A model generated the notes under the pieces. The model ran no database searches and was not told the origin of the DNA. It saw nothing but the letters and a program-made list of their open reading frames with translations. This document shows, in pieces, positions 8,839 through 62,862 of a stretch of 64,000 nucleotides of DNA. Where the stretch lies: NCBI GenBank assembly GCA_041725915.1, contig JBGRPZ010000001.1, forward strand, positions 66,198 through 130,197, written 5' to 3'. Source of the stretch: Hyphomicrobiales bacterium. GTDB lineage: Bacteria; Bacteroidota; Bacteroidia; Bacteroidales; JBGRPZ01. Positions within the stretch are counted from its first letter, which is position 1. Each line of letters starts with the position of its first letter. Position numbers and translations under genes: made by a program.

Positions 8839-8920
8839 GTTTTGTCGGGCTTATTTTTACTTTTGTCGGGCTTAAAACAAATACCTTCGAGCTTAAAACT
8901 ACTTTTGTCGGGCTTAAAAT
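8839..8920. repeat. Four phased copies (21-bp period) of the motif TTTTGTCGGGCTTAAAA
   Basis: GTCGGGCTTA / GTCGGGCTTA / TTCGAGCTTA / GTCGGGCTTA, with the central C at 8846, 8867, 8888 and 8909. Confidence 0.85.
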
Positions 8921-13496: not shown

Positions 13497-13975
13497 ATGA
13501 AGTAGTTTAAAAACCACTTATAACAAAAAATACAAAACACTAATAACCTACTTATTAGATTGCGGTTTAAAATTTAAAAAAGGTTTCGAAATAAGCTCTT
13601 CTTTTCTTAACACTTATTAAATATTGTAAGTGTGGTTTTTAAATCATTCCTATATATTTATATAGAAACCTAATTACATAGTATCTCCTGCATTATAAGC
13701 TGTAGATGTAGTTTCAATCTTTTCACCTTTAGTCCATAGACCTACGAGATTTATCCGCTTAACTTTTAATCTTGATTATTGATAAGACATGCTGTAGTGA
13801 CAAGATATATCTTGTTATAGCATACTTAAAAATACTGATTATAAGGTATTTCTGTAGATTAATGAAAATGTGCCAAAATACAGGAGAAAGCTATTTTTCA
13901 GCTCTGGATTTTTAAGTTAACGATTATACAAACTGAAGAAAAAACGAGTGTTTCATTTTGAAATAACTTAAGATA
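13497..13975. repeat. Dispersed non-coding element, copy A (inverted relative to copy B)
   Basis: The reverse complement aligns by eye with 23545-23790 and 24360-24565. Shared blocks include caagatatatcttgtcactacagcatgt, aaacactcgttttttcttca (exact 20-mer) and gaagtagtttaaaaac. Confidence 0.8.
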
Positions 13976-36461: not shown

Positions 36462-36540
36462 CCCTCGGGCTTAAAATGAAAAACAAGCCCGACAAAAGTA
36501 ATTTTAAGCCCGTGCTTTTTAATTCTCTCGGGCTTGTTTT
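36462..36540. repeat. Four GCCCG-core motifs at exact 21-bp spacing, in orientation + - - +
   Basis: ctcgggcttaaaa (core centre 36468), aagcccgacaaaag (36489), ttaagcccgtg (36510), ctcgggcttg (36531). Same motif family as 8839-8920. Confidence 0.85.
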
Positions 36541-40311: not shown

Positions 40312-40361
40312 CTTGTTGTCTTGGGAGAAAAGTCCGACATCTTGAGAGAAAAGTCCGACAT
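40312..40361. repeat. Two 21-bp tandem units cttgRgagaaaagtccgacat, preceded by a partial unit
   Basis: Units at 40320-40340 and 40341-40361. The core aagtccgaca resembles aagcccgaca of the 8.8-kb and 36.5-kb arrays. Confidence 0.8.
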
Positions 40362-40390: not shown

Positions 40391-40510
40391 CCAAAAAGTG
40401 CTTTAGTGCTTTTCGGAATCTTTTTTAAAAGGTTTAATTGTAGATTAATATATAGAATATATGCCTTGCAGACTTTATATCAGAAGTGGGGTTTAAACGG
40501 CTTCATTAGA
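40391..40510. repeat. Dispersed non-coding element, partial copy C
   Basis: ccaaaaagtgctttagtgcttttcggaatcttttttaaaaggtttaa matches 24436-24480 of copy B at about 40 of 45 positions by eye. Length is similar and the terminal hairpin region is related (gtttaaacggcttcat versus gtttttaaactacttcat). Confidence 0.7.
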
Positions 40511-46185: not shown

Positions 46186-46839
46186 TTATAAATGTATAGA
46201 GAATCCAAGTCTGATTCTAAATGCACTGTTAATATTACTTAGGTCTTCGTAATATCCGGGTTTATCTTTTATTTTATATGTGATCTTATCATGCTTATAA
46301 ATAAATCCAAGATCTAGAGCGACACAGTCAGATACAAAGTATGCAATACCTGCACCAAAACCAAAGCCGATAACATTGTCATTTAGATCATCCTTTATTA
46401 CTTCATTAAGTAATAAAGATTCTTTTTTCGACCAACCCCATCCATAGTTGAACTCACCTATAACATAAGGTTTCATCTTATCTTCAAGGAAATAATACTT
46501 TGCAAATGGAGCAAAAGCAAAGCCTGTTCTTGATTCTGGCTTATAAGTAATATCTTCAGCTATAACAGTCTCTGTAATCTTTATATGCTTATAATTAAAG
46601 TCTAGTCCCAGACCTATCGCAAGATTATCTACAAAGAAGTATCCAACAGCTGGTAAAATATTTAAATGGAATTTCTTAGGATCCATTCCTTTATGTGCGC
46701 CATATTCTACATCCATATTTTCAAATAATATGGTTGCGTTACTTCCTGAATACGCGTAAATCTTTCCTTTTTCTGTTTGTGCTACACTATATGAAGCAGA
46801 AAACAAAACAACGATAAATAAAAGTATAAACTTTTTCAT
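46186..46839 (-). CDS. Small outer-membrane beta-barrel protein, paralog 1 of 5
   Basis: Signal peptide ending SVAQTEKGKIYAY, alternating Gly/aromatic beta-strands, C-terminus RLGFSIHL. Confidence 0.7.
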   Translation of the reverse strand: MKKFILLFIVVLFSASYSVAQTEKGKIYAYSGSNATILFENMDVEYGAHKGMDPKKFHLNILPAVGYFFVDNLAIGLGLDFNYKHIKITETVIAEDITYKPESRTGFAFAPFAKYYFLEDKMKPYVIGEFNYGWGWSKKESLLLNEVIKDDLNDNVIGFGFGAGIAYFVSDCVALDLGFIYKHDKITYKIKDKPGYYEDLSNINSAFRIRLGFSIHL

Positions 46840-47084
46840 GGTAATAAATTTAGATTAGCAATGATCTTCAGTTGAAGAAATACCTGAAGATGGTTTGAAG
46901 TTTTAGTACGATAATGAATTATCGAGGGGGGATTTTTTAGGTTATCTATACAAATCTAATAAAAATGATCTAAGTATAGACATTTATATTCAAATAAAAT
47001 AATGCGTGATGGTTATATCAATAATCTCAAGAGGTGCTCTTGTATGAAAGTTTAGAGTTGCTGGAGTTTTGGTGAGAATAGACA

Positions 47085-47110
47085 AATGGCTGCCCAATAG
47101 AACAGCCATT
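47085..47110 (-). terminator. Putative terminator of paralog 2
   Basis: aatggctg / cagccatt hairpin, followed on the minus strand by TTGTC. Confidence 0.4.
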
Positions 47111-47129
47111 ATAGTTTATATGTAGAAGT

Positions 47130-47684
47130 TTAAAACTTGAATGATACACCTATATTTAGCTCAACTCCATTCATCCTTGAATAGTTATCGTTGTCCAGAT
47201 TATCGAAATGATTATACTTTATCTCGGTTTCCAGATTGATGTTCTTTGTAATTTCATATGACACTCCTAAGCCTAAATAGCCTAATATACCAGTATCATT
47301 TGTTCTGTAATATTGATTTGGTTTATACCCCCAATGTAAAGAACCTTTATGTGCAGAGATTCCTCCTGTGATATAAGGTCTGACCTTCCCTGTAGAAAGA
47401 TAATATTTGGAGAAGACTCCCAAAGAAATAGAAAGTTCATCGTTAAAAGCAGGCACTTTCATATAAGTAAGATTAGTACTTAAGCCTAATATTAGCTTAT
47501 TTGTTAGGAAATATCCTCCATCAGCCTGTAAATTGAAAACATAACTTGGTTCTGATCCTGATATGGATGTTATTGTATTTGAAAGCCCGGTTGACATTTT
47601 TGTGTAGAACTTACCTTTATCTTCTTGAGCTTGTATAAGTGTCGCCAATAATGATAATATTGCAATTATATATAATCGTTTCAT
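47130..47684 (-). CDS. Small outer-membrane beta-barrel protein, paralog 2 of 5
   Basis: Signal peptide ending IQAQEDKGKFYTK; C-terminus NIGVSFKF. Confidence 0.7.
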   Translation of the reverse strand: MKRLYIIAILSLLATLIQAQEDKGKFYTKMSTGLSNTITSISGSEPSYVFNLQADGGYFLTNKLILGLSTNLTYMKVPAFNDELSISLGVFSKYYLSTGKVRPYITGGISAHKGSLHWGYKPNQYYRTNDTGILGYLGLGVSYEITKNINLETEIKYNHFDNLDNDNYSRMNGVELNIGVSFKF

Positions 47685-47729
47685 GAAAATATTCTTTTTG
47701 ATATTAATTATAAATCCTTATTTGCCCAA

Positions 47730-48329
47730 TTAGAAAGAGATAGAAAATCCTACTGCAGTCTTAAGTTGATGAACTTTACGGGATGGATCTAAGGAAATTG
47801 TCTTAGAAGAATTAAAGGAATTATATCTGTATCCAATACTAAAATCTAAACTAATGTTCTTTGATATATAATAGGCAAGACCTAAATCTAAATCTCCATA
47901 TATTGTATTGCTTGATTGATTGGTGGTAGCTTTATTTGGTAGGACTTCTGTATAGTTATTATACATATATCCTATTCCTGCTTTCACAAACGGTTTAAGT
48001 GCTTTGGTTGAAAGATAGTGCTTTGTGAATAATCCTATTCCATAAAAGGAATTATCTATTTCTTCAGAAAAGTTTCCTGAGTATTTTATCTTATTGTAGG
48101 CTAAATTGATTTTAGCACCAACCACCAGATTATCTGAAACAAAATAACCAACTTCCGGATTTAAGTTAAGCCCATAAGTAGTGCTATTGTAACGCTTGGA
48201 TGAATAATCCTGATAGAATGCATTAATATCAGAATTTGCACCTAAATAGAATTTCCCTTTCTCTGTTTGTGCATTGCAATTTAGTACAAGAAGGAGTAGT
48301 GTTAATGTAATTAATGAAATGTGTTTCAT
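47730..48329 (-). CDS. Small outer-membrane beta-barrel protein, paralog 3 of 5
   Basis: Signal peptide ending NCNAQTEKGKFYLG; C-terminus AVGFSISF. Confidence 0.7.
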   Translation of the reverse strand: MKHISLITLTLLLLVLNCNAQTEKGKFYLGANSDINAFYQDYSSKRYNSTTYGLNLNPEVGYFVSDNLVVGAKINLAYNKIKYSGNFSEEIDNSFYGIGLFTKHYLSTKALKPFVKAGIGYMYNNYTEVLPNKATTNQSSNTIYGDLDLGLAYYISKNISLDFSIGYRYNSFNSSKTISLDPSRKVHQLKTAVGFSISF

Positions 48330-48684
48330 AAAAGTTTTGTTTTGTTTTTTATTGGCTTCTTTATGTTAGAAGCTTATCTGAATAAAAAACAAAGTCTTTT
48401 TTAGGCCTAATAAGTGCTTTGTTATTGATTACAAATATACGTTTAAAGTTCTTATATTGTTACTGTATAAAGTGTTAAAAAATGTTAAAAGACATTAATA
48501 TCTCTGATCGATTTATGTTAGGTAATATTGCTGTGTGTTTTATATGATAAGAGTTATGTTGACTTTAGTATAGTTATTTATATTAACATATAAAGCTAAT
48601 GTGGTTATGGCTTTAACTGTGCTTGATTGTAGTTAAGTGATAGCTTGTCAGGGGATGCTAAGAAAGGTAATTGTATATAAGAGA

Positions 48685-48714
48685 AAAGATGTCATACATA
48701 TGGCAGACATCTTT
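48685..48714 (-). terminator. Putative terminator of paralog 4
   Basis: 9-bp stem aaagatgtc / gacatcttt, followed on the minus strand by TTCTCTT. Confidence 0.45.
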
Positions 48715-48757
48715 CTTTTATTGTAAATCTGAGTTATAATTACTTAGGGCGTAGTAT

Positions 48758-49468
48758 TTAGAATGTTACTGCAAACCCTATGTTAAGCCCTATATTATTA
48801 TTAATGTATGTAACTCTATCTTCTTTCTCTCTTCTCTGAGAAAATAGTATTTCGGCTTCAATAGCTATGTGTTTGTTCAGGAAGTATGCTGCTCCACCTC
48901 CGATATTCCAATCAAATGGATGATTAGTACCTGCTGATCTCATTTTAGCAAGAGTTCTGTTGTTGTTATAAATAGTAGGGTTATACTCTCTAATTTTTGT
49001 TTCAGACCATCCAAAGGTAAAACCTGCAGTTACAAATGGTTTAAATTTCCCATCCATAAGATAATATTTTGCAAAAGGACCTAGATTTGCACTATAGTTT
49101 TCTTCATAAACATATTCCTTAAAATCATTTATATCCATGACTTTATGCTTAAATCTATAATAAGAGAAGTTTGCATCTAGACCTATAACAAGATTGTCTA
49201 TTACAAACATTCCTATATCTGATCTGAGATTGAAACCTTGTCTTTTTATATAAAAGTTCTTATCGTCAACATCGGAACTGTTATTGTAATATTGAAGATA
49301 ATTAAGATATCTATATTTCCCTGAGTATAAATCCCGTTCTCTGAATTTGTTGTAGTCTCCTGATAAATTGCTTGACAATCTGGTGTAAAATTTTCCTGCT
49401 TCTGTTTGAGAGAATATATCTATAGATAAAAAGCAAAGAATGATAAGTGGGAATATTAATTTTTTCAT
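48758..49468 (-). CDS. Small outer-membrane beta-barrel protein, paralog 4 of 5
   Basis: Signal peptide ending IFSQTEAGKFYTR; C-terminus NIGFAVTF. Confidence 0.7.
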   Translation of the reverse strand: MKKLIFPLIILCFLSIDIFSQTEAGKFYTRLSSNLSGDYNKFRERDLYSGKYRYLNYLQYYNNSSDVDDKNFYIKRQGFNLRSDIGMFVIDNLVIGLDANFSYYRFKHKVMDINDFKEYVYEENYSANLGPFAKYYLMDGKFKPFVTAGFTFGWSETKIREYNPTIYNNNRTLAKMRSAGTNHPFDWNIGGGAAYFLNKHIAIEAEILFSQRREKEDRVTYINNNIGLNIGFAVTF

Positions 49469-49505
49469 TATTGTTTCTTTTGGTTTAATTTAGAAATGGT
49501 GGTTA

Positions 49506-50198
49506 TTAAAAGGTGATAGAGAATCCAAGATTAAGATTAAGGTTGTTGTCTCTTTTTTCAATATACCTATTTTGAGAAGTACTAGAAGTAAAATTATAAT
49601 TGAAGCTTCCTTCTATAGCTAGATTATCATTTATAAAGTAAGCTGCACCTGCTCCAAGTCCTGTATATAAGGCATTTGCTTTACGATACGAATCATAATC
49701 TTTTATGTATTGATTACTTTCGTATTTATAGACAGGAGATTTAATAGAAGATTGTAATAAACCAATATTTGCTTTTACAAATGGCTTGAATTGCCCCTTA
49801 AGGAAGTAATATCTTAAAAAGGTTCCTACTTTAATTTGGGTTGATTTGGTTTTATATTTTACTTTATCTATTAAAAATTCATTACCATTATTGTCATGAC
49901 CTGTTTCTATATCGATTTCTTCTCTTTGTGAGTAGTTATAACCAAAATCGACTCCAACAACTAAATTGTTTGCTACAAAATACCCTAACTCAGGATTGAA
50001 ATTAAATCCAAAACTATGGTTTATAGCTCTTTCTTTAGTGTATATAGAAACATCATCTTTATACTTATGATTAGTACTGTTATAAAAGCCACCGATGTTA
50101 CTGTTTATACCTCCGAATATCTTCCCTTTTTCTGTTTGTGCGTAAGAGCTTAAAGAAAAAGCTGTAATAAATAGAATAATGAATGAAATGTGTTTCAT
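49506..50198 (-). CDS. Small outer-membrane beta-barrel protein, paralog 5 of 5
   Basis: Signal peptide ending SYAQTEKGKIFGG; C-terminus NLGFSITF. Confidence 0.7.
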   Translation of the reverse strand: MKHISFIILFITAFSLSSYAQTEKGKIFGGINSNIGGFYNSTNHKYKDDVSIYTKERAINHSFGFNFNPELGYFVANNLVVGVDFGYNYSQREEIDIETGHDNNGNEFLIDKVKYKTKSTQIKVGTFLRYYFLKGQFKPFVKANIGLLQSSIKSPVYKYESNQYIKDYDSYRKANALYTGLGAGAAYFINDNLAIEGSFNYNFTSSTSQNRYIEKRDNNLNLNLGFSITF

Positions 50199-50431
50199 AA
50201 GAATTGATTTGTTTTCTTTATTTTGTTATCAATACTATGATTCTTATCTGAATAGGAATCATTTTTTATATTCGTTTTATTGAAAAAACAAATATCAAAG
50301 ACAGATATTTGACTTTATTAATAGTTATAGTTCGAATGTTTTTATTTATTTTTTTATAAGCCTAGGAAATACAATAATAATGCCGCTTTCAGGAGGAAAT
50401 AGAATAAAAGGATAGATAATTGCTTTGACAT

Positions 50432-50465
50432 AAAAAAAACTACTTTCCTTCTTGGGAAAGTAGTT
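50432..50465 (-). terminator. Terminator of the C1 peptidase gene
   Basis: 11-bp perfect stem aactactttcc / ggaaagtagtt, followed on the minus strand by a T-run. Confidence 0.8.
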
Positions 50466-50492
50466 TCGTATTTATATATAATTATATGTTTT

Positions 50493-51734
50493 TTACTTGA
50501 ATTTCTTCATGTACTTCTTGAAAGCATCTTTATGTATAGTAATGCCCATCATCTTCAACTTTACATAATCTTCACTGAAGAAGTAGTAACCAAATTCAGG
50601 AGCTTTCTCATCGCCATTACGTGATCCGGAGCTTGAATCTTTGATAAGGTAGAAATCTTTTCCGTTTCTTGTTGTATATCCAACCAAATGCATACCATGA
50701 TCATCTGTTGTTGTATGATTCGAGAATCTGAATTGGCGTGCTTCTTCATTGATATAAGCAGATGGAATATCAAAATCAGGAATAAGAGCAACTTGTGTCC
50801 ACTTATCGAATCCTGCTTCAGAGACATCACCACCTATACTACATGTATAGCCGTCACGAATTGACTTTTTCACAACATCCATAAATACATCTAATGGTAC
50901 ATTATAATACTCTTTACTATCCCACCAGTTATCAGGGACATCATAAGATACCTGCTTCCAGTATGGTTCTTGCATGTATGAAAGAACTTCAATATAGTCA
51001 TCCATATTAAGTTTCAATACATTGTCAAGATATTCTTTTGGAGTGATCATTTTTCCTTCATATTCAAACTGTGCAGGTGGTTCCCCTATATGAAAGTTCA
51101 TGATAGACTTTATAGTAGCAACTACTTCGTCCATATTCCATGCATTGTCTCTTTTTACAGACTGAAGATAGTTGTTCATCTCCTTATACATTTTGGCATG
51201 TGTATGGTATTTTCTTTCCTTTGGAAGACCATTATATACAGACCATGGAAGGATACCATGCTTGCGGAAAGATCTTGTTACTGCATTTGCTTCAGATCCT
51301 TGTTCGAAGATTGTATTACCTCTGGACTCAACAAAACCCATTGCTTTCTCTACATATTCCCAGTATACAGTATACATTTCAGAAAGTTTCACTTCAAGCT
51401 TGTTAATTCTCTTTACTTCTGTTTCATAGAATGAAGTTGTAGAGAAAGCCCAACAGCTGCCTGTGTTTCCTTGTGAGATAGTAGGATTATGCCATTGATT
51501 CTTGTAGTCAGCAACTTTTGTAGGTACATTCTTTAAATCTTGTACCATGTTTGCTCTTTTATCCATCTTCTTGACCTCTTTTTGTTTGTCAACATGACGG
51601 ATGTCCTTAAGGATAGAGTTTTGATAGAAGCCTGGTTCGTATTCTTTAAACTTAATTTTGTCCTGCCCTTTTTGTGCATATCCTGATAAGCACATTACTG
51701 CAGAAGAAATAGTTATTAGTATCGTTTTCTTCAT
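50493..51734 (-). CDS. Papain-family (C1) cysteine peptidase, secreted
   Basis: Signal peptide, catalytic Cys context QGNTGSCWAFS, catalytic His context DDHGMHLVGY. 413 aa. Confidence 0.8.
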   Translation of the reverse strand: MKKTILITISSAVMCLSGYAQKGQDKIKFKEYEPGFYQNSILKDIRHVDKQKEVKKMDKRANMVQDLKNVPTKVADYKNQWHNPTISQGNTGSCWAFSTTSFYETEVKRINKLEVKLSEMYTVYWEYVEKAMGFVESRGNTIFEQGSEANAVTRSFRKHGILPWSVYNGLPKERKYHTHAKMYKEMNNYLQSVKRDNAWNMDEVVATIKSIMNFHIGEPPAQFEYEGKMITPKEYLDNVLKLNMDDYIEVLSYMQEPYWKQVSYDVPDNWWDSKEYYNVPLDVFMDVVKKSIRDGYTCSIGGDVSEAGFDKWTQVALIPDFDIPSAYINEEARQFRFSNHTTTDDHGMHLVGYTTRNGKDFYLIKDSSSGSRNGDEKAPEFGYYFFSEDYVKLKMMGITIHKDAFKKYMKKFK

Positions 51735-51940
51735 ATTTATATTTTTTACAAGAGCAAAAGTAACAAATATGAAGATATATAAGAAGGGGGAGGATCTGTT
51801 TATCTTTGGTATATAATACTGTATAGCTTTATTTCGGCTTTTAGGTTTCTTCTTTATATAAACAGAAAGGGACTGACAATTATGCCAGCCCCTAAAACAT
51901 GCAAATTTTTCAGTGAAGTAGTTTTTAAACTACCTCTTAT

Positions 51941-52411
51941 TTATAGAAATTCGATACTGTCACTTTTGGTGGTTTTCTCACAATAGTGGCAATGAAGTTT
52001 TAGCTCACCATCACTTGTGTCAACCTTAAATCTTGATTTTACTTCATCCTCAATATTTGTTACGCAATTAGGATTGAAGCATTTTACAAACTGTTCGACT
52101 TTTCCAGGAATCTCTACACCTTGCTTATTGACTACATCATAATCTTTGATTTCGATAAGGGTGGCAGAAGGTGCAATAAGAGCAATTTTATTTAACTCTT
52201 TAGGTTCAAAGAATCTGTCTTTAACTTTGATGATGGCCTTATTGCCATATTTTTTGCTGTCCAGATTACTACCAAAGTAGATCTGGTTCTTAGACTGATC
52301 TAATCCAAGGATTCTGATAACGGTAAATAAGCTATCAGAAGGAAGGTGGTCTATTACAGTACCATTATTCAATGCTGATACTATAAGCTCTTTTCTTTTA
52401 TTGTTTTCCAT
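51941..52411 (-). CDS. pyrI: Aspartate carbamoyltransferase regulatory subunit
   Basis: 156 aa. NGTVIDHL N-terminal domain and Zn-domain cysteines CFNPNC...CHYCEK. Confidence 0.9.
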   Translation of the reverse strand: MENNKRKELIVSALNNGTVIDHLPSDSLFTVIRILGLDQSKNQIYFGSNLDSKKYGNKAIIKVKDRFFEPKELNKIALIAPSATLIEIKDYDVVNKQGVEIPGKVEQFVKCFNPNCVTNIEDEVKSRFKVDTSDGELKLHCHYCEKTTKSDSIEFL

Positions 52412-52469
52412 TTCAGTAGTATTTCAATATAAAAAAAAAGCAGTCAACGAATAAGACTGCCTGCGATAA

Positions 52470-53378
52470 TTATTTAAGACCTAAGATAGATGCTACTAAA
52501 GCTTGACGGACATAAACGCCGTTTCTGGCTTGCTGAAAATAATAGGCCTTGGGATTGTCATCAACATCCTCTTTGATTTCATTTACTCTTGGTAGTGGAT
52601 GAAGAATACGCAGGTTATCTTTTCCTTGATCTAACATGGCGTTATGAAGGATATATGAATTCTTCACTTTTTCATAATCCAAAGGATCAGGAAAACGCTC
52701 TTGTTGAATACGGGTCATATACAATACATCAACGTGAGGAATCACATCTTTGACATCTGTATATTGATAATACTCAAGATTGGCTTCTTTGATATATCTT
52801 TTTACAGCACTTGGAAGCTTTAGTTCTACAGGAGATACCAGATGGAATGTAGCATTAAAATGACAAAGAGCCATTACCAATGAATGTACGGTACGTCCAT
52901 ACTTAAGATCTCCTACAAAAGCAACATGAAGGTTGTCAAGTGTACCTTGAGTTTTTCTAATTGAATACAAATCAAGAAGGCATTGTGTTGGGTGCTGATT
53001 TGCTCCATCGCCTGCATTAATAATAGGAACTGAGGCAACTTCAGAAGCAAAACGGGCACTACCTTCAACAGGATGGCGCATTACAATTAGATCAGAATAG
53101 TTACTAACAGTAAGTATAGTATCTTTTAGGGATTCTCCTTTCTTTACACTAGAACTTGAAGCGTCAGAAAAGCCAACGATCTTGCCTCCCAGCATTGAGA
53201 TTGCTGATTCGAAACTTAGGCGAGTTCTTGTTGATGGTTCAAAGAAAAGCGAAGCAATAACTTGATTTTCAAGTATTCTTTGTTTTGGGTTCTTCTCAAA
53301 GCCTTCTGCAATATCTAGTATTTTGATATACTCATCCTTGCTGAAGTCATTGATAGAAACAAGACTACGATTTTTCAT
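52470..53378 (-). CDS. pyrB: Aspartate carbamoyltransferase catalytic subunit
   Basis: Motifs FEPSTRTRLSFE, QHPTQCLLD and HPLPRVNEI. 302 aa. Confidence 0.95.
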   Translation of the reverse strand: MKNRSLVSINDFSKDEYIKILDIAEGFEKNPKQRILENQVIASLFFEPSTRTRLSFESAISMLGGKIVGFSDASSSSVKKGESLKDTILTVSNYSDLIVMRHPVEGSARFASEVASVPIINAGDGANQHPTQCLLDLYSIRKTQGTLDNLHVAFVGDLKYGRTVHSLVMALCHFNATFHLVSPVELKLPSAVKRYIKEANLEYYQYTDVKDVIPHVDVLYMTRIQQERFPDPLDYEKVKNSYILHNAMLDQGKDNLRILHPLPRVNEIKEDVDDNPKAYYFQQARNGVYVRQALVASILGLK

Positions 53379-53453
53379 TGATATAAATTTGAAGTGGTTT
53401 TTTTTTGGGGTGTAAAATTAAGTTTTTTATTAATAACTTGTGTCTTTAATTTA

Positions 53454-53480
53454 CAAAAAAAAAGCGACCCGGAGGCCGCA
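53454..53480 (-). terminator. Strong GC-rich terminator between the P-loop gene and pyrB
   Basis: On the minus strand: GCGGCC-TCCG-GGTCGC followed by a T-run of 9-10. Confidence 0.8.
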
Positions 53481-53501
53481 CACTATAAATTATGAACTAG
53501 T

Positions 53502-54851
53502 CTATGCATTCATAAGCTCAAGCTTGTTTTTTTTTAAAAACTCTTCCACTACTCCTTCTAGGCTTGGACATCCAATCTCTTGAAGATCATAGTAAACTCT
53601 TGTATTAGGCTTATCGATCTTTATAATTCTATTTAGATCAATAGGAGTACCAATAACTACAGCATCACACTCGCAATTGTTGATTGTAGTTTCAAGATCC
53701 TTTAATTGCTGCTCACCATAACCCATTGCAGGTAGGAGAGTACCAATATTAGGATAGATTTGGAATGTTTCAGCAAGTTTACCAACACAATAAGGGCGTG
53801 GGTCGACAAGTTCTGCTGCTCCAAACTTATGCGAAGCTACAACACCTGCGCCAATCTTCATTTCACCATGTGTAAGCGTTGGTCCATCCTCAACAACCAA
53901 TACCTTCTTGCCTTTGATAAGTTCAGGATTATCGACTTTAATTGGAGAAGCTGCATCTATAACAACTGCATTTGGGTTTACTTTGTCGATGTTTTGTCTT
54001 ACAATCTGAATAGCATCTCTATCTGCACTGTCCATCTTATTGATTACAACACAATCAGCCATTCTGAGGGTAACTTCACCTGGATAATAAGACAACTCAT
54101 GACCTGGGCGGTGAGGATCGACAACGGTAATGTTAAGATCAGGCTTGTAGAATGGGAAATCATTATTTCCACCATCCCAAAGAATTACATCACATCCATC
54201 AGGATCATTTTCTGCTGCTCTTACAATAGCTTCATAATCTACACCTGCATAAATAACATTTCCTCTTGCTACATGTGGTTCGTATTCTTCCATCTCTTCA
54301 ACTGTACACTTATGCTTGTGAAGATCGTCGATAGTAGCAAAACGTTGTACTTTCTGTTCAACGAGGTCACCATAAGGCATAGGGTGTCTAATAGCAACAA
54401 CCTTAAGTCCTCGTTCCATTAATAATTCAATAACTCTTCTTGATGTTTGACTTTTACCACAACCCGTACGGATAGCACCTACAGCGATAACTGGCTTTGT
54501 AGATTTTACCATTGTAGGTTCTGGACCTAAAAGAATAAAATTAGCTCCTGCGGAGTTGACTATCGCACTCATACCCATAACTTTTGAATAAGTTACATCT
54601 GAATATGAAAATACGCAGTCATGAACATTGTGTTCTTTTATCAAACTAACCAGGTTTTCTTCTCCAAAAATAGGAATACCATCCGGATATAAATCACCAG
54701 CTAGTTCCTTTGGATAGCATCTTCCATCAATATCAGGTATCTGAGCTGCCGTAAAAGCCACAACATTATAATCAGGGTTATTACGATAGTAAGTATTGAA
54801 ATTATGGAAGTCTCTTCCTGCTGCACCAATGATGATCACATTTTTTTTCAT
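53502..54851 (-). CDS. P-loop NTPase, cyclic 2,3-diphosphoglycerate synthetase-like family (function uncertain)
   Basis: MKKNVIIIGAAGRDFHNFN Rossmann-like N-terminus and Walker A GAIRTGCGKSQTSRRV. About 450 aa. The family assignment is from memory of the archaeal cpgS architecture and was not verified. ATG 54851 is preferred to TTG 54878. Confidence 0.4.
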   Translation of the reverse strand: MKKNVIIIGAAGRDFHNFNTYYRNNPDYNVVAFTAAQIPDIDGRCYPKELAGDLYPDGIPIFGEENLVSLIKEHNVHDCVFSYSDVTYSKVMGMSAIVNSAGANFILLGPEPTMVKSTKPVIAVGAIRTGCGKSQTSRRVIELLMERGLKVVAIRHPMPYGDLVEQKVQRFATIDDLHKHKCTVEEMEEYEPHVARGNVIYAGVDYEAIVRAAENDPDGCDVILWDGGNNDFPFYKPDLNITVVDPHRPGHELSYYPGEVTLRMADCVVINKMDSADRDAIQIVRQNIDKVNPNAVVIDAASPIKVDNPELIKGKKVLVVEDGPTLTHGEMKIGAGVVASHKFGAAELVDPRPYCVGKLAETFQIYPNIGTLLPAMGYGEQQLKDLETTINNCECDAVVIGTPIDLNRIIKIDKPNTRVYYDLQEIGCPSLEGVVEEFLKKNKLELMNA

Positions 54852-55640
54852 GCTCTTTCTGGTTAATAAGTTTAACAATTAATTTATTATAAAATGACTA
54901 TGTCTAGTACACTCAAACCAAAAAAACCGGGAAATCCTCAAGGAATCATTCAGCACAAAATTTACGAAAGGAATCGTAAATTACATCTTATATGGATGCG
55001 TCCGGAAATAATCTGTATGGTAGGTATATTGCATCTACCAAAGCGATCGCTAAGTTATAAACTTATTTTTTTCTCGCAATGCTTATTCAGACTTTTTTTA
55101 ATTAAATGTTTTTTTATTTTATAACTGAATGATGAGCAGTGTACTTATGTAAAAACGTATAATTATACATGATAAATGTATTTCCCCTTTACCTTGGTGG
55201 AGTATTTTACTATAATTGATTCATAGACCATAGGAAGATGAATAAATATAGACCTTATATGCAATTCTGATCTTCGTATTGTTGTTGTTTATATGATTAT
55301 TTCTGCTGATATTTTTCCACCTTAAATATTTATCATTACATTTGTGATCACTATAGAACTATATTGAGAAAAATTGTTCATGTAGGGTTATAAATTCAGG
55401 TTCTTCTTTTTGGTTAACATGATTTTCTTGAACGAAGAGTCTGAATTTCCCTATTGATAAGTTGATGTTTCGGGGGTAAAGAATGAAAATTCATCAACGA
55501 TTGAATATTATCTCATAACTACTGAATATAAATACTCTTTTAATTGAATATTTACATGCTGCTTATTGAATTTTTATTCATCATCTATTGATTATTACTT
55601 ATCGCCTGTAACATAGTAGATCCTTTATGTTATAATATAT

Positions 55641-55909
55641 ATTCCCCTCTTTATAAACGTGATTTTTCCGCCTTGAGAATTTTGAGTTTCCGCCTTGAAG
55701 AAGTAAATTCTTCCCGTTGATAATCTTTGTTCGCCTCCTTAAGTTGGTGTAGTCTCCTCCTTAAGATGAGAGTCTGTCCCTTGATGAATACATATTTGTC
55801 CCTTGATGAACACATATTTGCCTTTTGATGCACCAAAACAAGGTCTATTTTGAATAAAAATTCATGTTTTGATGAATGAAGATGCGCTGTATTTTGAATA
55901 AAAATTCAT
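55641..55909. repeat. Degenerate tandem array, about 12 units in a 22-bp register
   Basis: TTGA/TTAA cores at 55673, 55695, 55717, 55739, 55761, 55781, 55803, 55825, 55850, 55869 and 55894, with a weaker unit at 55651. Neighbouring units are pairwise near-identical (tttccgccttga x2, ctcctccttaag x2, tgtcccttgatgaa x2, tattttgaataaaaattcat x2). Confidence 0.85.
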
Positions 55910-55940
55910 TGTTTATAAGATTTTATTATGTGTAATGACA

Positions 55941-55974
55941 TAAAAAAGACCATGCATAATAATTGCATGGTCTA
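55941..55974 (-). terminator. Terminator of the 56004..56417 gene
   Basis: 10-bp perfect stem agaccatgca / tgcatggtct, followed on the minus strand by TTTTTTA. Confidence 0.8.
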
Positions 55975-56003
55975 TATGAAAGAGATTCCAAATGAAATCT
56001 ATT

Positions 56004-56417
56004 CTAAGCCTCTTGCTTAGCTGCCTCAGCAAAGGCTTTATCTAATTCAGCAGTTAGATTGACATGTGAATTTCTTTTCCCACTTAAAGTTTTGTCGATA
56101 AGGGTTTTGGAGACGAATAATTTTTTTGCAGTTATCTTGACATGAAAACTTAGTTCTGTATCTGTACATTTCCATTTTGATAAATTGGCTTCAACAGTAA
56201 TTCCATGAACAGTTTTCTTTTCATGCATATTCCCACTTAGGTCTATATTGATACTTCCACCTCCTTTGTTGGTTTTTACAATTGCAGTTGTAGGGAAGAC
56301 GTTGGTGCCATTATCATGAACAATTAGTTCAGCAGTTCCTGAAATAATACCTAGAACTGAAAAATTTTCTTTATGATCGATAATTATTGGCAGTCCATTA
56401 TTTTCTTTGCTCATCAT
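56004..56417 (-). CDS. Hypothetical protein (137 aa, no signal peptide)
   Basis: Clean ORF with its own terminator. No recognisable motif. Confidence 0.5.
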   Translation of the reverse strand: MMSKENNGLPIIIDHKENFSVLGIISGTAELIVHDNGTNVFPTTAIVKTNKGGGSINIDLSGNMHEKKTVHGITVEANLSKWKCTDTELSFHVKITAKKLFVSKTLIDKTLSGKRNSHVNLTAELDKAFAEAAKQEA

Positions 56418-56787
56418 TCTAAAATTTTGATATTTAATGTTAATGTTATTTTTCGGTAAAATTATAGTGATATATGATAGAGGGATAGCGTAAGAGTGCT
56501 TGTTTGATAGATGTAGGAAATCTCTGTTTATAGTATAAGCAGTATTACTATAGAGTTTGTTTTTATAAGAATAAATACCTGAATAATTATTTATACAAAG
56601 AGCTTATTTAAAAGCGATAAAAACTTTTTATAGCTTGATATTGATTTCTGTCTAATCTACTTTTTATTACCTTTGCCTCCTTTCATTAAGTAGCTTACAA
56701 TAAGATGATTTTATTCGTTTTAGATAAAGGATTTATCTTATAATAAGATGATAAGCAATATATAATAGGCTAAATAATAATCACAAA

Positions 56788-57957
56788 ATGGGCAAAATAA
56801 GAGTTAAGCTTTTAACTTTCAAGGGAGCTGGTGAATCAGTTCTCAATATGGGGAAAGAAAAGGTATACAAGATCTTTGGTAAAAGTTATGTTAAGTTTGT
56901 TGATGAGCATCCGGAAGTATTATATTTTGTTACTGGTGGTTCTGAAGAAGAAGCGTTACGTGTAGTAGAGCGCAGAGGTCGTAGATTTTATCTTCTTCTT
57001 GCAGACAGTGAGCATAATGCTTATGCTTCAGCAACAGAAGTAAAAGCATGGTTAAATCAAAATATTGTAAGAGCTAGATTGCTTCAGATTGGCGTTGATG
57101 GTAGTGATTCTCTGATTAAGAGCTACTTCAATGTAAGAAAAGCATTTTGGAAGCTTCAAAATACAAAGATTGGATTGTTTGGGAAACCTTCTGATTGGTT
57201 AGTAGCTTCTACAATTCCTTTTGGCAGATTGAAAGATTGGTTGGGAATAACTCTTCAACAAATTGATTGGAGTGATTTTAACCCTGAAGATTACCCACAG
57301 GATGAAAAATTCCTTTCTAAATTCCAACCTAAATGTAGTGGAGACCTTGGCACAACTTCCGCTGTCTCTCAATTTATGATGGATCAGATTAAGCTACATA
57401 AGCTTGATGCAATTACTGTTGAGTGCTTCCCTATGGTTCAGGAAAAAGGAATTACTGCTTGTCTTCCTCTTTCTTTATTGAATGATAATGGTGTTCCTGC
57501 AGGTTGTGAAGGTGATATTACTGCTATCACAGGTATGATGATAGGTCAGGCTCTTACTGGTAGTATTCCTTGGATGGCTAATACTGTTGAGATAGATAAG
57601 AAACGTTCTTTGTTTGCTCATTGTACTATTGGCACAAACATGTTGAATGATTATAATATCACTACTCATTTTGAAACAGGTAAAGGTACTGCTATTCAAG
57701 GTGACTTTAAACATAGAGAAGTGACTATCTTCCGTGTGAACAGAAACCTTGAAAGAGGATTTGTTACAAACGCAATGATTACTCATACTCCTAAGTTAGA
57801 TACTGCTTGTAGAACTCAGGTAAAAGTACAAATGCCTGAAAAGGCTGTTGAAACTTTAAGAGATCAGCCTTTAGGGAATCATCATCTTTTCCTTCCTGGT
57901 GATCATGTTGAAGAAATTAAAATGGCTTTTGAACTTCTTGGTATGGAGATCGTTTAA
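56788..57957 (+). CDS. L-fucose/L-arabinose isomerase-family-like protein (predicted sugar isomerase)
   Basis: 389 aa. GVPAGCEGDITAITGMMIG and FAHCTIG blocks resemble the catalytic-domain pattern of fucose-isomerase-like proteins. From memory, not verified. Confidence 0.4.
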   Translation: MGKIRVKLLTFKGAGESVLNMGKEKVYKIFGKSYVKFVDEHPEVLYFVTGGSEEEALRVVERRGRRFYLLLADSEHNAYASATEVKAWLNQNIVRARLLQIGVDGSDSLIKSYFNVRKAFWKLQNTKIGLFGKPSDWLVASTIPFGRLKDWLGITLQQIDWSDFNPEDYPQDEKFLSKFQPKCSGDLGTTSAVSQFMMDQIKLHKLDAITVECFPMVQEKGITACLPLSLLNDNGVPAGCEGDITAITGMMIGQALTGSIPWMANTVEIDKKRSLFAHCTIGTNMLNDYNITTHFETGKGTAIQGDFKHREVTIFRVNRNLERGFVTNAMITHTPKLDTACRTQVKVQMPEKAVETLRDQPLGNHHLFLPGDHVEEIKMAFELLGMEIV

Positions 57958-58703: not shown

Positions 58704-60242
58704 ATGAATAAAAAGAATAGAATGCATTATAATGATATAGGTGTTGAACAGATATTTGATGCCTTGAGTGTTGATAATGATCATTTGTTGACTGATGATC
58801 TTTGGAAGATCCTTGCTGATAATGGCATTCAAGAGAATGATCCCCGATTTCTACAGATAAGAGAGTTCCTTTGTGGTGATAACCCACGACATCAGTGCGC
58901 TTCTATAAACTTTGATGCATTCAATCAGGTGATTTCACAAAGCAACTTGCTGAGAAAAAGCCTTACGGGTCAGCTTGTTGTTCCTGATTTCAAATCATTC
59001 TCTTCGTCTTTTGCTTCAATCTATGAGCAAACAAAGAAGAATGTAGGAGGCAAAGTGGCTGATTATATTCCTCAGTTGGCACGTGTAAATCCTGATTATT
59101 ATGCTGTTTCCGTATGTACAATCGATGGACAAAGATATGCATTGGGAGATGTTTCTGTTCCATTCTGTTTTCAGTCGACATGTAAACCTATATTATATTG
59201 TATGGCTCAGGAGGATTATGGTGCTGATAATGTCCATAATCATGTTGGCTATGAGCCTAGTGGCCTTGGATTCAATGAACTGAATTTGGATAGAAACCAG
59301 AAACCCCACAATCCAATGATAAATGCAGGGGCTATCATGTGTTCTTCTCTGATTAAACGCAAACTTGATCTCCCTGATAAGTTTGATGCAGTGTTGAATA
59401 CAATTAAAGACCTTGGTGCTACAGACAATATCAACTTCAATAATGCTGTTTACCTTTCCGAGCGTCAAACTGCTGATCGTAACTTTGCTCTTGCATATTA
59501 TATGCGTGAGAATAAGGCTTTCCCCCCAAATACAGATATAATCGAAGCTCTTGATTTTTACTTTCAATGTTGCTCTATAGAAGTGAATGCCGTAGATATG
59601 TCTGTTATTGGTGCTACCTTGGCTAATGGTGGTATCAACCCATTTACAGAAAAGAAAGTGTTTGCAAATAATACTGTCCAGAATTGCATGTCTTTGATGT
59701 ACTCTTGTGGGATGTATGATTACAGCGGAGAATTTGCATTTAAGATTGGATTGCCTGCAAAGTCTGGTGTGTCGGGGGCATTGCTTGTTGTTATTCCTGA
59801 TCTTATGGGCATCTGCATTTGGTCGCCTCGTTTAGATCAGATAGGAAATAGTGTCAGAGGTATTGAATTTTGTCAGGAGCTTGCCAATAGATATAACATA
59901 CATAAATTCGATGCTCTTGCCGGTGAGACTGACCGCCGAAACCCTAAAGCCCAGAAATTTGATGACTCTAGCAAAGGTTTCCTTTCATTGATAGAAAGTG
60001 CCAGCCGTGGGGATCTTGTTGAACTCAAACGCCTGATGGCTTCAGGTGTTGATATTAATGCCAAGAACTATGATGGCCGTACTGCACTGCATCTTGCCTG
60101 TGCCGAAGGACAAACAGAAGTAGTACAATTCCTTATCGAAAACAATGTTGAGGTGGATATTAAAGACCGCTGGGGACATACTCCATTGTCAGAAGCTGAA
60201 ATAGGTGGATTCCTCGAGATTGTAAGGCTGTTGAGGGGGTAG
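58704..60242 (+). CDS. glsA: Glutaminase, metazoan GLS-like architecture (EF-hand-like N-terminal domain + glutaminase + ankyrin repeats)
   Basis: QSTCKPILYCMA, KPHNPMINAGAIM, SCGMYDYSGEFAFKIGLPAKSGVSG and IWSPRLDQIGNSVRG glutaminase blocks. The C-terminus YDGRTALHLACAEGQTEVVQFLIENNVEVDIKDRWGHTPL is ankyrin-like. Confidence 0.9.
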   Translation: MNKKNRMHYNDIGVEQIFDALSVDNDHLLTDDLWKILADNGIQENDPRFLQIREFLCGDNPRHQCASINFDAFNQVISQSNLLRKSLTGQLVVPDFKSFSSSFASIYEQTKKNVGGKVADYIPQLARVNPDYYAVSVCTIDGQRYALGDVSVPFCFQSTCKPILYCMAQEDYGADNVHNHVGYEPSGLGFNELNLDRNQKPHNPMINAGAIMCSSLIKRKLDLPDKFDAVLNTIKDLGATDNINFNNAVYLSERQTADRNFALAYYMRENKAFPPNTDIIEALDFYFQCCSIEVNAVDMSVIGATLANGGINPFTEKKVFANNTVQNCMSLMYSCGMYDYSGEFAFKIGLPAKSGVSGALLVVIPDLMGICIWSPRLDQIGNSVRGIEFCQELANRYNIHKFDALAGETDRRNPKAQKFDDSSKGFLSLIESASRGDLVELKRLMASGVDINAKNYDGRTALHLACAEGQTEVVQFLIENNVEVDIKDRWGHTPLSEAEIGGFLEIVRLLRG

Positions 60243-60379: not shown

Positions 60380-62215
60380 ATGAAAATAAATAAGATTCAT
60401 ATAAAGAACTTTCGAAGTATTCAAGATTTATCGTTTGAATTTTCTGATAATTTGAATGTTTTTGTTGGTGCTAATGGGGCAGGAAAAACTACTGTGTTAG
60501 AGGCTATTTCTATATCATTATCATGGATGATGAATAGAATAAGGAATATGAATTCTAATGGAGCTTCAATTACTGATTTGGATATTCGATACAATACTGA
60601 CTATTCTATGATTGAGGGTTTATATGAGGCCGATAAACAAGAATATAAATGGAAACATATCAAAGTAGCAGAAGGTAAAAGTATAAAAGAAAAATCTTCT
60701 TACACAGGTGCTACCGAATTGGCTGAAGTATTTCAATCAAAACTTAATGATAATAAGGAATTACCTGTAATAGCCTACTATCCAGTAACCCGAACAGTCG
60801 AAGACGCTGATGCAAGCATAAAAGGTAATGAAAAATTATCGCGGTTAGACCTATATGATGATGCTTTAAAGGGAAAAAGTAATTATCAAAGCTTTTTTAA
60901 GTGGTATAGACTACAAGATGATATTAATAATGAGCAATTACTTGCAGAGAGGAATTGGTTTGAGGAGAATAAGCAAGTAAGAAATAAATTTTTAGCTAAT
61001 TTGAATCTTAAAATAAACGAGTATTTAAAGAAGAAGGGCATTGCTTTAGGAAGATATGATAAATTATTACATCATTATTCTGATTATATGTTTAATGCCA
61101 TGACTTTAAGGTCTTTCTTGGATCAATTGAGCTTGTTATATCATTCGATTAGTATTGAGTTAGGTGCAAATAGAATTCATTTTATTGAAGATGCAATAAT
61201 GTCTTATTATGCTTTAAAGAATGTAGGGAATAAGATCGTATCTTACATGAAGTCTGAAGATGACATTAATTTATTCATAAATGAAATAACATCTGTTATT
61301 TTATTTAAAGATGATTTGAGTAAGCTTAATGAACTTGATAAAGATTCATGTTGCATTATTCTTGACTTTTATTATTTAATAATAGATAATGCTTTGCCTT
61401 GGATATCTAAGGATGGAAAAGAAAAGCTGTATAATTATTTGAAAGATTTGCTTAGTTTAAAAGAAAGCAATCAGCAACGACAGTTTACTATTAGATTTAT
61501 AGAATTAGTAAAAAATGAACTTGTCTCAAGGGAAAGAAGTCTTCAATCATCAAATTCAGAGGTAAATACTTTTATCAAAAAAACCATAGAATCTTTTCTT
61601 CCAAACTATAAGAATCTTCAAGTAAAGCGTATTCCATACCCTCATTTATCAATAGATAAAGGTGAGAATTCTTTTAATGTTGGGCAACTCTCTGATGGAG
61701 AGAAAAATTTGATCACCTTAATTGCAGATATTGCTAGGAGACTAATAATCGCAAATACATATAGTGAGAATCCTTTAAAAGGGAATGGAATTATCCTTAT
61801 TGATGAAGTGGAACTTCATTTACACCCTAAATGGCAAAGAAAAGTGATTCCACAATTATTAAAAACTTTCCCAAATTGCCAGTTTTTCATCACAACACAT
61901 TCCCCGCAGGTTGTAAGTCATGTTCAGCCAGATTCATTATTCCTGCTTAGTAATAATGACAATGTTTTGTCTGTATCAGAAATGGATGAATCTTATGGAA
62001 TGAATACAGATAGAGTTTTGGAAGACATCTTTGCTACTGATGCTCGCCCTAAGGAAATAAAAGGTCGCTTTAAAGAACTTTACAGGTTGATTGATGCAGG
62101 TGAATATGATAAGGCAAGGTCTGAACACGAAAGTTTATCCCGGATTATTTCCGGAGATGATGAGTTAAGTTACATTAATGTTTTAATTGACCGAAAAAGG
62201 CTTTTGGGGAAATGA
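60380..62215 (+). CDS. ptuA: ABC/AAA_15-21-type ATPase, Septu PtuA-like
   Basis: Walker A GANGAGKTT (aa 30-38), signature-like LSDGEKNLITL, Walker B ILIDEVELHLHP, H-loop TTHSPQV. A long helical insertion lies between the N- and C-terminal ATPase lobes. No TOPRIM domain follows. Confidence 0.7.
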   Translation: MKINKIHIKNFRSIQDLSFEFSDNLNVFVGANGAGKTTVLEAISISLSWMMNRIRNMNSNGASITDLDIRYNTDYSMIEGLYEADKQEYKWKHIKVAEGKSIKEKSSYTGATELAEVFQSKLNDNKELPVIAYYPVTRTVEDADASIKGNEKLSRLDLYDDALKGKSNYQSFFKWYRLQDDINNEQLLAERNWFEENKQVRNKFLANLNLKINEYLKKKGIALGRYDKLLHHYSDYMFNAMTLRSFLDQLSLLYHSISIELGANRIHFIEDAIMSYYALKNVGNKIVSYMKSEDDINLFINEITSVILFKDDLSKLNELDKDSCCIILDFYYLIIDNALPWISKDGKEKLYNYLKDLLSLKESNQQRQFTIRFIELVKNELVSRERSLQSSNSEVNTFIKKTIESFLPNYKNLQVKRIPYPHLSIDKGENSFNVGQLSDGEKNLITLIADIARRLIIANTYSENPLKGNGIILIDEVELHLHPKWQRKVIPQLLKTFPNCQFFITTHSPQVVSHVQPDSLFLLSNNDNVLSVSEMDESYGMNTDRVLEDIFATDARPKEIKGRFKELYRLIDAGEYDKARSEHESLSRIISGDDELSYINVLIDRKRLLGK

Positions 62216-62862
62216 AATATATCAAAAAAGGAGTAGAACCAGAATTCTTAAAGAACAAAAAGGAAAAACTTGATAAGAATGCTAGTTATGATGATTTAGG
62301 GAGAAAGATAAAAAAGCTCTTGCGAGAACATTTAAAGGCTGAACAAGGAGAAATATGTTGCTATTGTGAACGAAGACTGCATACAAAAGATGATAATAGC
62401 AAAGATTATCATAATGAACACATAAAACCTAAAGATAGAGAGTTGTACCCACATTTAGCAACAGACTATTACAATATTGTATGTTCTTGCCAAGGTAATT
62501 TGAAGAAGGCAGAGATAAGCCATTGTGGGAAAGCAAAGGATAATTGGTATGATGAGCAATTATTTGTTTCCCCGCTCTCAAAAGATTGTGAAAGTAAATT
62601 TAGATATAATGATGGAGGAGAAGTATTTGCTGTAGATGGTAATAAAGCTGCTAAAACCACTATTGAGAAACTAAATCTTAATTGTGATAAGTTAATCGAG
62701 ATGAGAAAAATGGTTTTGAAAGTCTTTTATGAAGAAGAATTATCTTTGGAAGAGTTGATAAGGCTTGTGAAAGATGTTCTAAAAGAGAAAGGAAATAACA
62801 AAGGTAAGTATCAAGAATTCTACACTACAATAAAGTATCTTTTCGGAAAATATATCGAATGA
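62212..62862 (+). CDS. ptuB: HNH endonuclease (TIGR02646-like), Septu PtuB-like
   Basis: CCYCERRL...DYHNEHIKPK...YYNIVCSCQG...HCGKAKDN is an HNH/His-Me finger pattern. The ATG overlaps the ATPase stop by 4 nt (ATGA), indicating translational coupling. Confidence 0.7.
   Translation: MKYIKKGVEPEFLKNKKEKLDKNASYDDLGRKIKKLLREHLKAEQGEICCYCERRLHTKDDNSKDYHNEHIKPKDRELYPHLATDYYNIVCSCQGNLKKAEISHCGKAKDNWYDEQLFVSPLSKDCESKFRYNDGGEVFAVDGNKAAKTTIEKLNLNCDKLIEMRKMVLKVFYEEELSLEELIRLVKDVLKEKGNNKGKYQEFYTTIKYLFGKYIE

Follow-up and report, generated by a model that had tools for sequence, protein, structure and literature searches.

Is a long tandem array of degenerate 22-bp units in the chromosome of an uncultured Bacteroidales-type organism kept for a DNA-binding protein, or is it a minisatellite without a specific role? 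The array lies in a 64-kb stretch of contig JBGRPZ010000001.1 (positions 66,198 to 130,197; hereafter the window, which is our view of this genome and to which all genome-level statements are limited), within a 1,152-bp gap flanked by two minus-strand genes, a P-loop gene that heads a P-loop-pyrB-pyrI block and an ORFan gene. It is a lineage-specific, non-coding tandem array of about 21 copies that share a single lattice and lie in novel DNA at a synteny breakpoint. The best, still tentative reading of its sequence (probability of roughly 0.4) is that of a minisatellite built by duplication that would act at the DNA level as a phased protein-binding array for an oligomeric regulator.

Anatomy of the array

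The periodicity was assessed with lag, phase, lattice-phase and run statistics, all of which are independent of the unit anchors that we picked by eye. Between 55641 and 55887, sequence identity is 0.54 at lag 22 and 0.49 at lag 44, compared to a background of about 0.26, with 0.21-0.33 at most other lags and up to 0.37 at those beside the peaks. In the Rayleigh test, the TTGA, TTRA and TGAW positions are more strongly phased than the best period found in 496-500 of the 500 dinucleotide-preserving shuffles (all 500 for TTRA and TGAW). Tandem Repeats Finder reports the freshest duplications alone, namely, one with a 22-bp unit (x2.1) at 55775-55820 and one with a 44-bp unit (x2.1) at 55823-55914.

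The original prediction described twelve units, with TTGA or TTAA words at 11 positions in a register within 2 nt of multiples of 22. All 11 words are present in this register, with intervals of 22, 22, 22, 22, 20, 22, 22, 25, 19 and 25 between 55673 and 55894, and the array is real; its extent, however, was under-called, given that about 21 units can be traced from ~55480, and a weak 22-bp periodicity extends further left, to ~55390. The lattice slips at a 21-bp step from 55502 to 55523 and through a 2-bp loss between 55762 and 55781, amounting to 3 bp net over ~460 bp.

The unit consensus is TTGA-TGAAT-WWWW-ATTCA-YCYY. The ancestral unit carried the 14-bp palindrome TGAAT-W4-ATTCA, and the central units have drifted from it to C-rich words followed by TTGA/TTAAG. 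The ARG box recognized by the arginine repressor ArgR has the consensus wnTGAATwwwwATTCAnw, with the same core, TGAAT-W4-ATTCA. Of the six sites in the left cluster (Table 1), that at 55567 matches this core perfectly, those at 55480, 55502 and 55523 have 2 mismatches each, and those at 55545 and 55589 have 4; the left-cluster word ATTCATCA is oriented opposite to TGATGAAT of the right cluster. The perfect left-hand site had been noticed as an inverted copy of the last word at about 55575; this copy does exist, slightly displaced (55567-55580), and is the third perfect palindrome of the array. A pyrimidine-rich word had been taken to mark the register throughout, which holds for the middle units (TTTCCGCCTTGA x2, TCKCCTCCTTAAG x2 and TGTCCCTT), whereas it is TGAAT that keeps the exact register across the right half, at 55785, 55807, 55829 (as TGCAC), 55851, 55873 and 55895, that is, in exact 22-bp steps. 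About eight units keep one half-site and three keep the whole palindrome. All the exact TGAATWWWWATTCA palindromes in the window (3 of 3) are on the lattice, as are 6 of the 25 sites with at most 2 mismatches; the one in the divergent region at 56580-56593 is the only off-lattice site with at most one mismatch. We estimate the chance that three independent palindromes fall within ~1 kb of 64 kb at roughly 1e-3.

Table 1. The 22-bp array, its parts and the adjoining features (coordinates in the window)
Feature	Coordinates	Strand	Remarks
P-loop gene	53502..54851	-	heads the P-loop-pyrB-pyrI block; on the minus strand, lies downstream of the array
Spacer	54852..55479		AT-rich (~27-30% GC), non-periodic; from the array to the P-loop gene start; without conserved ORF (open reading frame)
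Bacteroidetes-type -7 motif TACATTTG (TAnnTTTG)	55337..55344	+	sole exact one in the gap; faces the array
Whole tandem array	~55480..55938		~21 units on a single 22-bp lattice, ~460 bp
Left cluster	55480..55602		six ARG-box-like sites (box scan)
Perfect 14-bp palindrome TGAATTTTTATTCA	55567..55580		belongs to the left cluster
Middle units	55610..55782	+	C-rich words, then TTGA/TTAAG; TGAAT palindrome lost
Core of the array as first called	55641..55909		12 units (lag-22 identity)
Right cluster	55781..55916	+	TGAAT half-sites; holds the fresh 22-bp x2 and 44-bp x2 duplications
Perfect palindrome TGAATAAAAATTCA	55851..55864		right cluster
Perfect palindrome TGAATAAAAATTCA	55895..55908		44 bp from the copy at 55851
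Intrinsic terminator of the ORFan gene	55947..55973	-	10-bp stem, then T-run; strong
ORFan gene	56004..56417	-	137 aa; own strong terminator
One-mismatch palindrome TGAATAATTATTTA	56580..56593		in the divergent region flanked by the ORFan and isomerase-like genes

Evolution within the array and a possible mode of action

Neighbouring units have identical words of 12-20 nt in common, with identity at chance level in the spacers between them. The repeated words are the two pairs of the middle units, one whole unit that is present twice, and a 20-nt block around the palindrome that recurs at lag 44. The clustering of matches into runs is moderately significant (p=0.014 for a 12-nt run and p=0.009 for the 20-nt run at lag 44; in the left block, with fewer runs than expected, p=0.004). 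Local alignment of the left and right clusters recovers the 14-mer palindrome alone, without extended homology; because the alignment is confined to the 14-mer, a large inverted duplication of the clusters was rejected, and their likeness looks like similarity at the level of the motif rather than a copied block. As far as the sequence can tell, the word and spacer pattern, the run clustering and the shared 14-mer lean towards constraint on motif and phase; short-tract conversion between units could mimic such signals.

We favour the phased binding array because the periodicity is far beyond chance, because one lattice joins the left, middle and right parts with so little net slippage, because each of the three exact palindromes falls on it, because the clusters share the box only and the matches fall in long runs, and because there is no coding or RNA-family alternative. 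The minisatellite would have arisen by repeated local duplication, unequal exchange and short conversion, and any action of the array would be exerted at the DNA level. Sites would be presented every two helical turns, on nearly one face of the helix, so that a dimeric or oligomeric DNA-binding protein could occupy the intact palindromes at high affinity and extend cooperatively across the degenerate ones. The resulting nucleoprotein block might modulate transcription of the P-loop-pyrBI operon on the left, of the ORFan gene and of a possible plus-strand transcript starting from 55337. The closest sequence match among candidate proteins is an ArgR-type hexamer.

For the direct-repeat words, AraC- and LytTR-type regulators are alternative candidates only; both families are abundant in Bacteroidota, and their operators are direct repeats of ~9-17 bp with a 21-22-bp period that occur as single pairs just upstream of a promoter. 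Like these operators, the array has adjacent identical words of 12-13 nt, paired at a distance of exactly 22 bp (TTTCCGCCTTGA x2, TCKCCTCCTTAAG x2); unlike them, it consists of several different pairs set head to tail, with no such regulator encoded nearby and no promoter identified.

Novel DNA at a synteny breakpoint

The nearest homologues of the P-loop protein are 85-86% identical, with no closer relative in protein searches, and exact-protein look-ups of the window genes gave no match. For the isomerase-like gene (56788-57957), nearer homologues, at 71% and 67% identity, were found on contigs L212 and L213. The former spans the P-loop to isomerase genes, and the latter spans pyrB to AlbA_2, preceded by ORF fragments that match the P-loop gene DNA at 78%; together, they point to the arrangement P-loop>pyrB>pyrI>isomerase>AlbA_2, all on one strand. 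In the window (46186-57957), by comparison, the block P-loop-pyrBI(-C1 peptidase) is inverted relative to isomerase-AlbA_2. Homology to both contigs ends at the ATG of the P-loop gene and ~26 bp ahead of that of the isomerase gene; thus, the segment 54854-56761 (~1.9 kb), which includes the spacer, the array, the ORFan gene and its upstream region, is novel DNA at the breakpoint.

Both contigs carry 22-bp arrays of their own: four copies of AGTTGTCGCTGCCACAACTCTG, itself palindromic, between the P-loop gene and pyrB (L213 2966-3052), and 4.6 copies of CCATAGGCGATTGCTGCAAACA (L212 10008-10108). The units of both hold short inverted repeats, the L213 array follows a terminator-like hairpin, and all three arrays, that of the window included, come after a terminator and before the next gene; the three intergenic regions have no sequence in common. 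In a survey of 962 kb of related sequence, all arrays whose period exceeds 10 bp (7 of 7) have units of 21, 22 (four arrays), 24 or 43 bp, and three of the four 22-bp arrays fall within the 88 kb made up of the window, L212 and L213.

The window contains further arrays. A 43-bp array extends from 23762 to ~23995-24032 (5.4-6.3 copies, 95% matches) within a gap of 1.9 kb that contains no ORF and lies upstream of a purT-like gene; the flanks of the array (element 23624-24551) recur in inverted orientation, with a single unit, at 13497-13890 and partly at 40391-40425. This looks like a dispersed element resembling a MITE (miniature inverted-repeat transposable element) with an internal minisatellite, by analogy with the 464/PgRS and BrickBuilt elements of Porphyromonas gingivalis. 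There are also 21-bp arrays, TTTTGTCGGGCTTAAAACTAC x3.8 at 8840-8919, with a related copy at 36479-36512, and TCTTGAGAGAAAAGTCCGACA x2 at 40319-40361. The gap that holds the 55480-55938 array has no second copy in the window and no similarity to these other arrays.

Intergenic arrays with units of 22, 23 and 41 nt are known from P. gingivalis, where BrickBuilt (23-nt) and 464/PgRS (41-nt) lie inside MITE-like elements (PMC4596501). Like the array described here, they belong to Bacteroidales, are strictly intergenic, imperfect and species-restricted, and consist of spacer-less units of ~22-23 nt or about double that length (PMC4596501); they occur in 1 to ~23 copies without outside BLAST matches (PMC4596501), and the P. 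gingivalis pairing of 23 and 41 nt is mirrored by the 43-bp array in a dispersed repeat of the window. BrickBuilt, however, is a MITE with a leader and a tail, terminal inverted repeats and ~19 genomic copies (PMC4596501), whereas our array has no terminal inverted repeats (its flanks share only weak 14-16-nt inverted matches, 81-86% complementary) and a single copy in 64 kb, and its units are 54% identical at lag 22, compared to 0-11% mismatches in BrickBuilt (PMC4596501).

A binding array or a neutral minisatellite

Several of our results weigh against a phased binding array. The original prediction pointed to relatives as the place to look for it, and none was found: 80 GTDB loci around P-loop homologues show neither an array nor DNA similarity to the gap, and the gap upstream of their P-loop gene is usually 50-400 bp long. 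There is no orthologous array for a conservation test, and the adjacent gene is an ORFan. A strict test reveals no significant unevenness of conservation among the lattice phases (p=0.20). Given the unrelated 22-bp arrays in the two nearest contigs and elsewhere, the preferred period may be a generic mutational habit of the clade rather than the mark of one protein. The 22-bp lattice leaves 4 bp between 18-mers, and the perfect boxes on the right are 44 bp apart, in place of the 20-21 bp that is canonical for ArgR; more than 600 bp separate the array from the closest start codon; the window encodes no regulator; boxes with at most 2 mismatches upstream of the P-loop gene occur in 13 of 78 relatives, compared to 10.7% in shuffles, which is no enrichment; and the same palindrome is found in unrelated metagenome contexts among the matches listed.

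Nearly as likely as the phased binding array is a neutral minisatellite, formed by slippage or unequal exchange in dispensable DNA at the rearrangement junction and now decaying without sequence-specific function; the palindromes would then be the least-decayed remnants of the founder, and the A5/T5 flip of their centres would stem from a single quasi-palindrome template switch. Much speaks for this explanation: the absence of the array from all relatives examined, its position in novel breakpoint DNA beside an ORFan, the 22-bp arrays of unrelated sequence that the two nearest contigs carry elsewhere, together with the 43-bp and 21-bp arrays of the window itself, the 22-, 23- and 41-nt intergenic arrays of P. 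gingivalis (PMC4596501), the high degeneracy of the units combined with the non-significant lattice-phase test, and the lack of a conserved palindrome upstream of the P-loop gene in relatives. Against it, ~21 units hold their register to within 3 bp even though the majority of positions are randomised; identity resides in contiguous words separated by random-level spacers, unlike the uniform decay expected after whole-unit duplication; the left and right clusters have the palindrome alone in common; and, given the deletion bias of bacteria, long persistence of 460 bp of useless DNA would be unlikely. Stepwise duplication and cooperative binding had both been proposed in the original prediction, and the anatomy (lattice, palindromes, shared 12-20-nt words) fits this picture; what has to be set beside it is neutrality at close to equal odds.

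The ARG-box palindrome and its other uses

A narrower version of the binding-array reading, which we consider unlikely, is that of an ArgR operator array: arginine-bound hexamers would link arginine status to the P-loop-pyrBI operon, or else the array would titrate ArgR. It draws on the three exact 14-bp ARG-box cores (55567, 55851 and 55895), the three further ones with 2 mismatches, and the adjoining operon, which encodes aspartate carbamoyltransferase, a consumer of carbamoyl phosphate. The spacing of the sites, about every two helical turns, also resembles that of ArgR operators, in which 18-bp palindromes recur at this distance on one helix face and hexamers bind pairs of boxes (PMC4381063). 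The array and the ArgR/AhrC operators are thus alike in the palindrome of the 18-bp class with its TGAAT-W4-ATTCA core and in the two-turn repeat; binding by an oligomer is a property of the known operators. A canonical operator, however, consists of two boxes 2-3 bp apart (20-21-bp period, 39 bp in all) (PMC4381063) and overlaps a promoter of an arginine-related gene, whereas here ~21 positions, three of them perfect, follow each other at 22 bp, more than 600 bp from start codons, and the boxes are 630-1050 bp from that of the P-loop gene. The array has no conserved equivalent among 78 relatives; a one-mismatch box in L212 is at chance level. Among the window ORFs scanned, there is no GDDT-type ArgR ORF, no Arg_repressor Pfam match and no arg gene, and we found no ArgR motif for Bacteroidota in the literature.

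Perfect box pairs in metagenomes, among the matches listed, show spacing peaks at 22-24 bp and 43-45 bp, and only 4 of the ~130 box intervals are at 20-21 bp, which implies that the motif is not ArgR-specific and that the palindrome is used by other systems. No homologue of the array appeared among the matches listed in this box-pair scan, and viral scans with the unit words returned single chance-level matches or none. Membership of the array among ArgR operators is not established on this sequence evidence.

Two of these other occurrences can be described. Perfect TGAATWWWWATTCA pairs 23-24 bp apart lie upstream of genes for small glycine/arginine-rich proteins (MPGxDxTGPxGxGPxTGRGxG..., with a preceding Shine-Dalgarno sequence) in loci L097, L099, L108, L113, L135, L153 and others; these proteins are putative members of the DUF5320 family. 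Judged by sequence, the pairs are a conserved putative operator that shares the ARG-box core. The 43-45-bp peak is mostly due to one CGTGAATTATAATTCACG satellite family with flanking ACTGTTCA/TGAACAGT words (L087, L111, L133, L137 and ~30 others); it is present in many contigs from a few series of samples, and a single group of organisms is its probable source.

A broader version of the regulatory idea, and a decidedly improbable one, is that the arrays of 21-24 or ~43 bp are an expandable regulatory architecture of the whole clade, each being a copy-number-tunable operator for a different oligomeric regulator; the array in the window would then be an amplified ArgR-type operator that wraps ~460 bp and couples arginine status to P-loop-pyrBI.

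Replicon sites and RNA elements

The units had also been compared to iterons, and a cis-site of a mobile replicon, relic or active, would be either a set of iterons or a sopC/parC-like centromere, bound by a protein of the element such as the ORFan product. Tandem units of 22 and 43-44 bp, phased and in some cases with an internal inverted repeat, are indeed typical of such sites, the 22-bp iterons of R6K, the 43-bp sopC repeats of F and parC of R1 being examples; these, however, are near-identical repeats beside rep or par genes. The array has 22- and 44-bp units with a palindrome, an AT-rich stretch and a gene without known function adjoin it, and the region is variable, with PtuA/PtuB defence genes near. 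In contrast to plasmid iterons and centromeres, its units are degenerate (~54% identity at period 22, as opposed to near-identical 17-22-bp repeats) and far more so than in working iterons, and its context is chromosomal, with housekeeping genes all around. The window encodes no Rep, ParA/ParB-type protein, integrase or transposase, the gap contains no DnaA box, and blastn found no match among 72,556 plasmids or 50,697 phages; the structure prediction for the ORFan product gives no clue either (pLDDT, the predicted local distance difference test score, of 35). The iteron reading thus fails, and we regard a replicon site as highly improbable. A chromosomal origin, oriC, was rejected as well: the GC skew merely follows gene orientation, and the gap has no DnaA box.

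The least probable of the readings, and a very improbable one, is an RNA element, either a minus-strand RNA with GGA motifs that sequesters a protein, as loosely proposed by analogy with CsrB/RsmZ, or a plus-strand transcript that runs from 55337 through the array and antisense into the ORFan gene. Promoters of Bacteroidota use -33/-7 motifs, and a sigma-70-type candidate at 55608-55636 was discounted for this reason. The exact -7 motif TACATTTG at 55337 speaks for the plus-strand transcript; the scan of the sequence upstream of it detected no -33 TTTG/TTG. On the minus strand, the array begins 10-30 bp downstream of the strong ORFan terminator, with no Bacteroidetes -7 motif after it. The folding z-scores of -3.1 (plus strand) and -2.5 (minus strand) are suggestive, but they include the terminator hairpin and the palindromes, and the gap does not appear to be convincingly structured as RNA in these predictions. 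The BrickBuilt arrays of P. gingivalis appear to be transcribed on both strands (E. coli promoter-probe assays and published RNA-seq; PMC4596501).

Searched against Rfam with gathering thresholds and with E<=10, the segment 54800-56100 yielded nothing but an rli38 match below threshold, on the terminator, and in the whole window Rfam detects three tRNAs only. A sponge of the CsrB/RsmZ type has its own promoter and terminator, matches a family model and displays GGA motifs in hairpin loops, which is not what the minus strand offers. The GGA words, said to recur every 22 nt, are present in seven units only (55663-55802), where they complement the C-rich words; the strongest of them, AAGGAGG (units 55739 and 55761), are paired in a stem of the fold predicted for the minus strand rather than exposed in a loop. 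Bacteroides, moreover, are reported to be without CsrA and Hfq (PMC13370968). The sponge analogy is accordingly not supported. A coding repeat or small ORFs were rejected because the 22-nt period breaks the reading frame and the longest ORFs in the gap, which had rightly been called free of credible ones, are of 76 aa (plus strand) and 61 aa (minus strand), with no Pfam or PHROG match and no tblastn conservation.

Genomic neighbourhood

The window is chromosomal housekeeping DNA of ~33% GC that encodes, among others, IleRS, LspA, RmlA/C/D, uridine kinase, a carboxyltransferase of the methylmalonyl-CoA-decarboxylase type, PurT, GS-III and paralogous outer-membrane beta-barrel proteins. The P-loop protein, named 'predicted GTPase / cyclic 2,3-diphosphoglycerate synthase' by the sources, is 73-86% identical over Bacteroidales, Clostridia, Chitinispirillia and even archaea (600 loci in GTDB), which is unusually high conservation for a protein without a curated family; its gene is frequently found beside pyrB or an OTCase-like gene. 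The 137-aa ORFan protein, in contrast, has itself as its sole match among 5.8 billion clustered proteins, belongs to no Pfam or NCBIfam family, has an empty PDB sequence search and a best PHROG match at E=0.06, and its AlphaFold model is uninformative.

On the far side of the isomerase-like gene, a glutaminase-ankyrin fusion (58704-60242) is encoded directly upstream of two genes, one for a PtuA-like ATPase (611 aa) and the other for a PtuB-like HNH endonuclease (216 aa); their 4-bp overlap (60380-62862, plus strand) suggests a Septu- or retron-associated defence pair. Both proteins score under the NCBIfam equivalog cut-offs, and the HNH protein clears the TIGR02646 subfamily cut-off.

Implications

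Arrays of this class recur in the clade and are known from P. gingivalis. Nothing here is greatly surprising to a specialist; of most interest is the clade-wide preference for tandem units that span two or four helical turns. As a mere minisatellite, the array marks the site of a synteny breakpoint, could serve for typing as a hypervariable locus, and adds to the evidence that intergenic DNA of Bacteroidales breeds units of ~22 and ~43 bp. Should it function as a binding array, its ~20 sites would make it a phased operator of unusual size, in which the growth of operators by duplication could be studied, and the conserved P-loop-pyrBI operon of Bacteroidales would be subject to a form of regulation that has yet to be studied.

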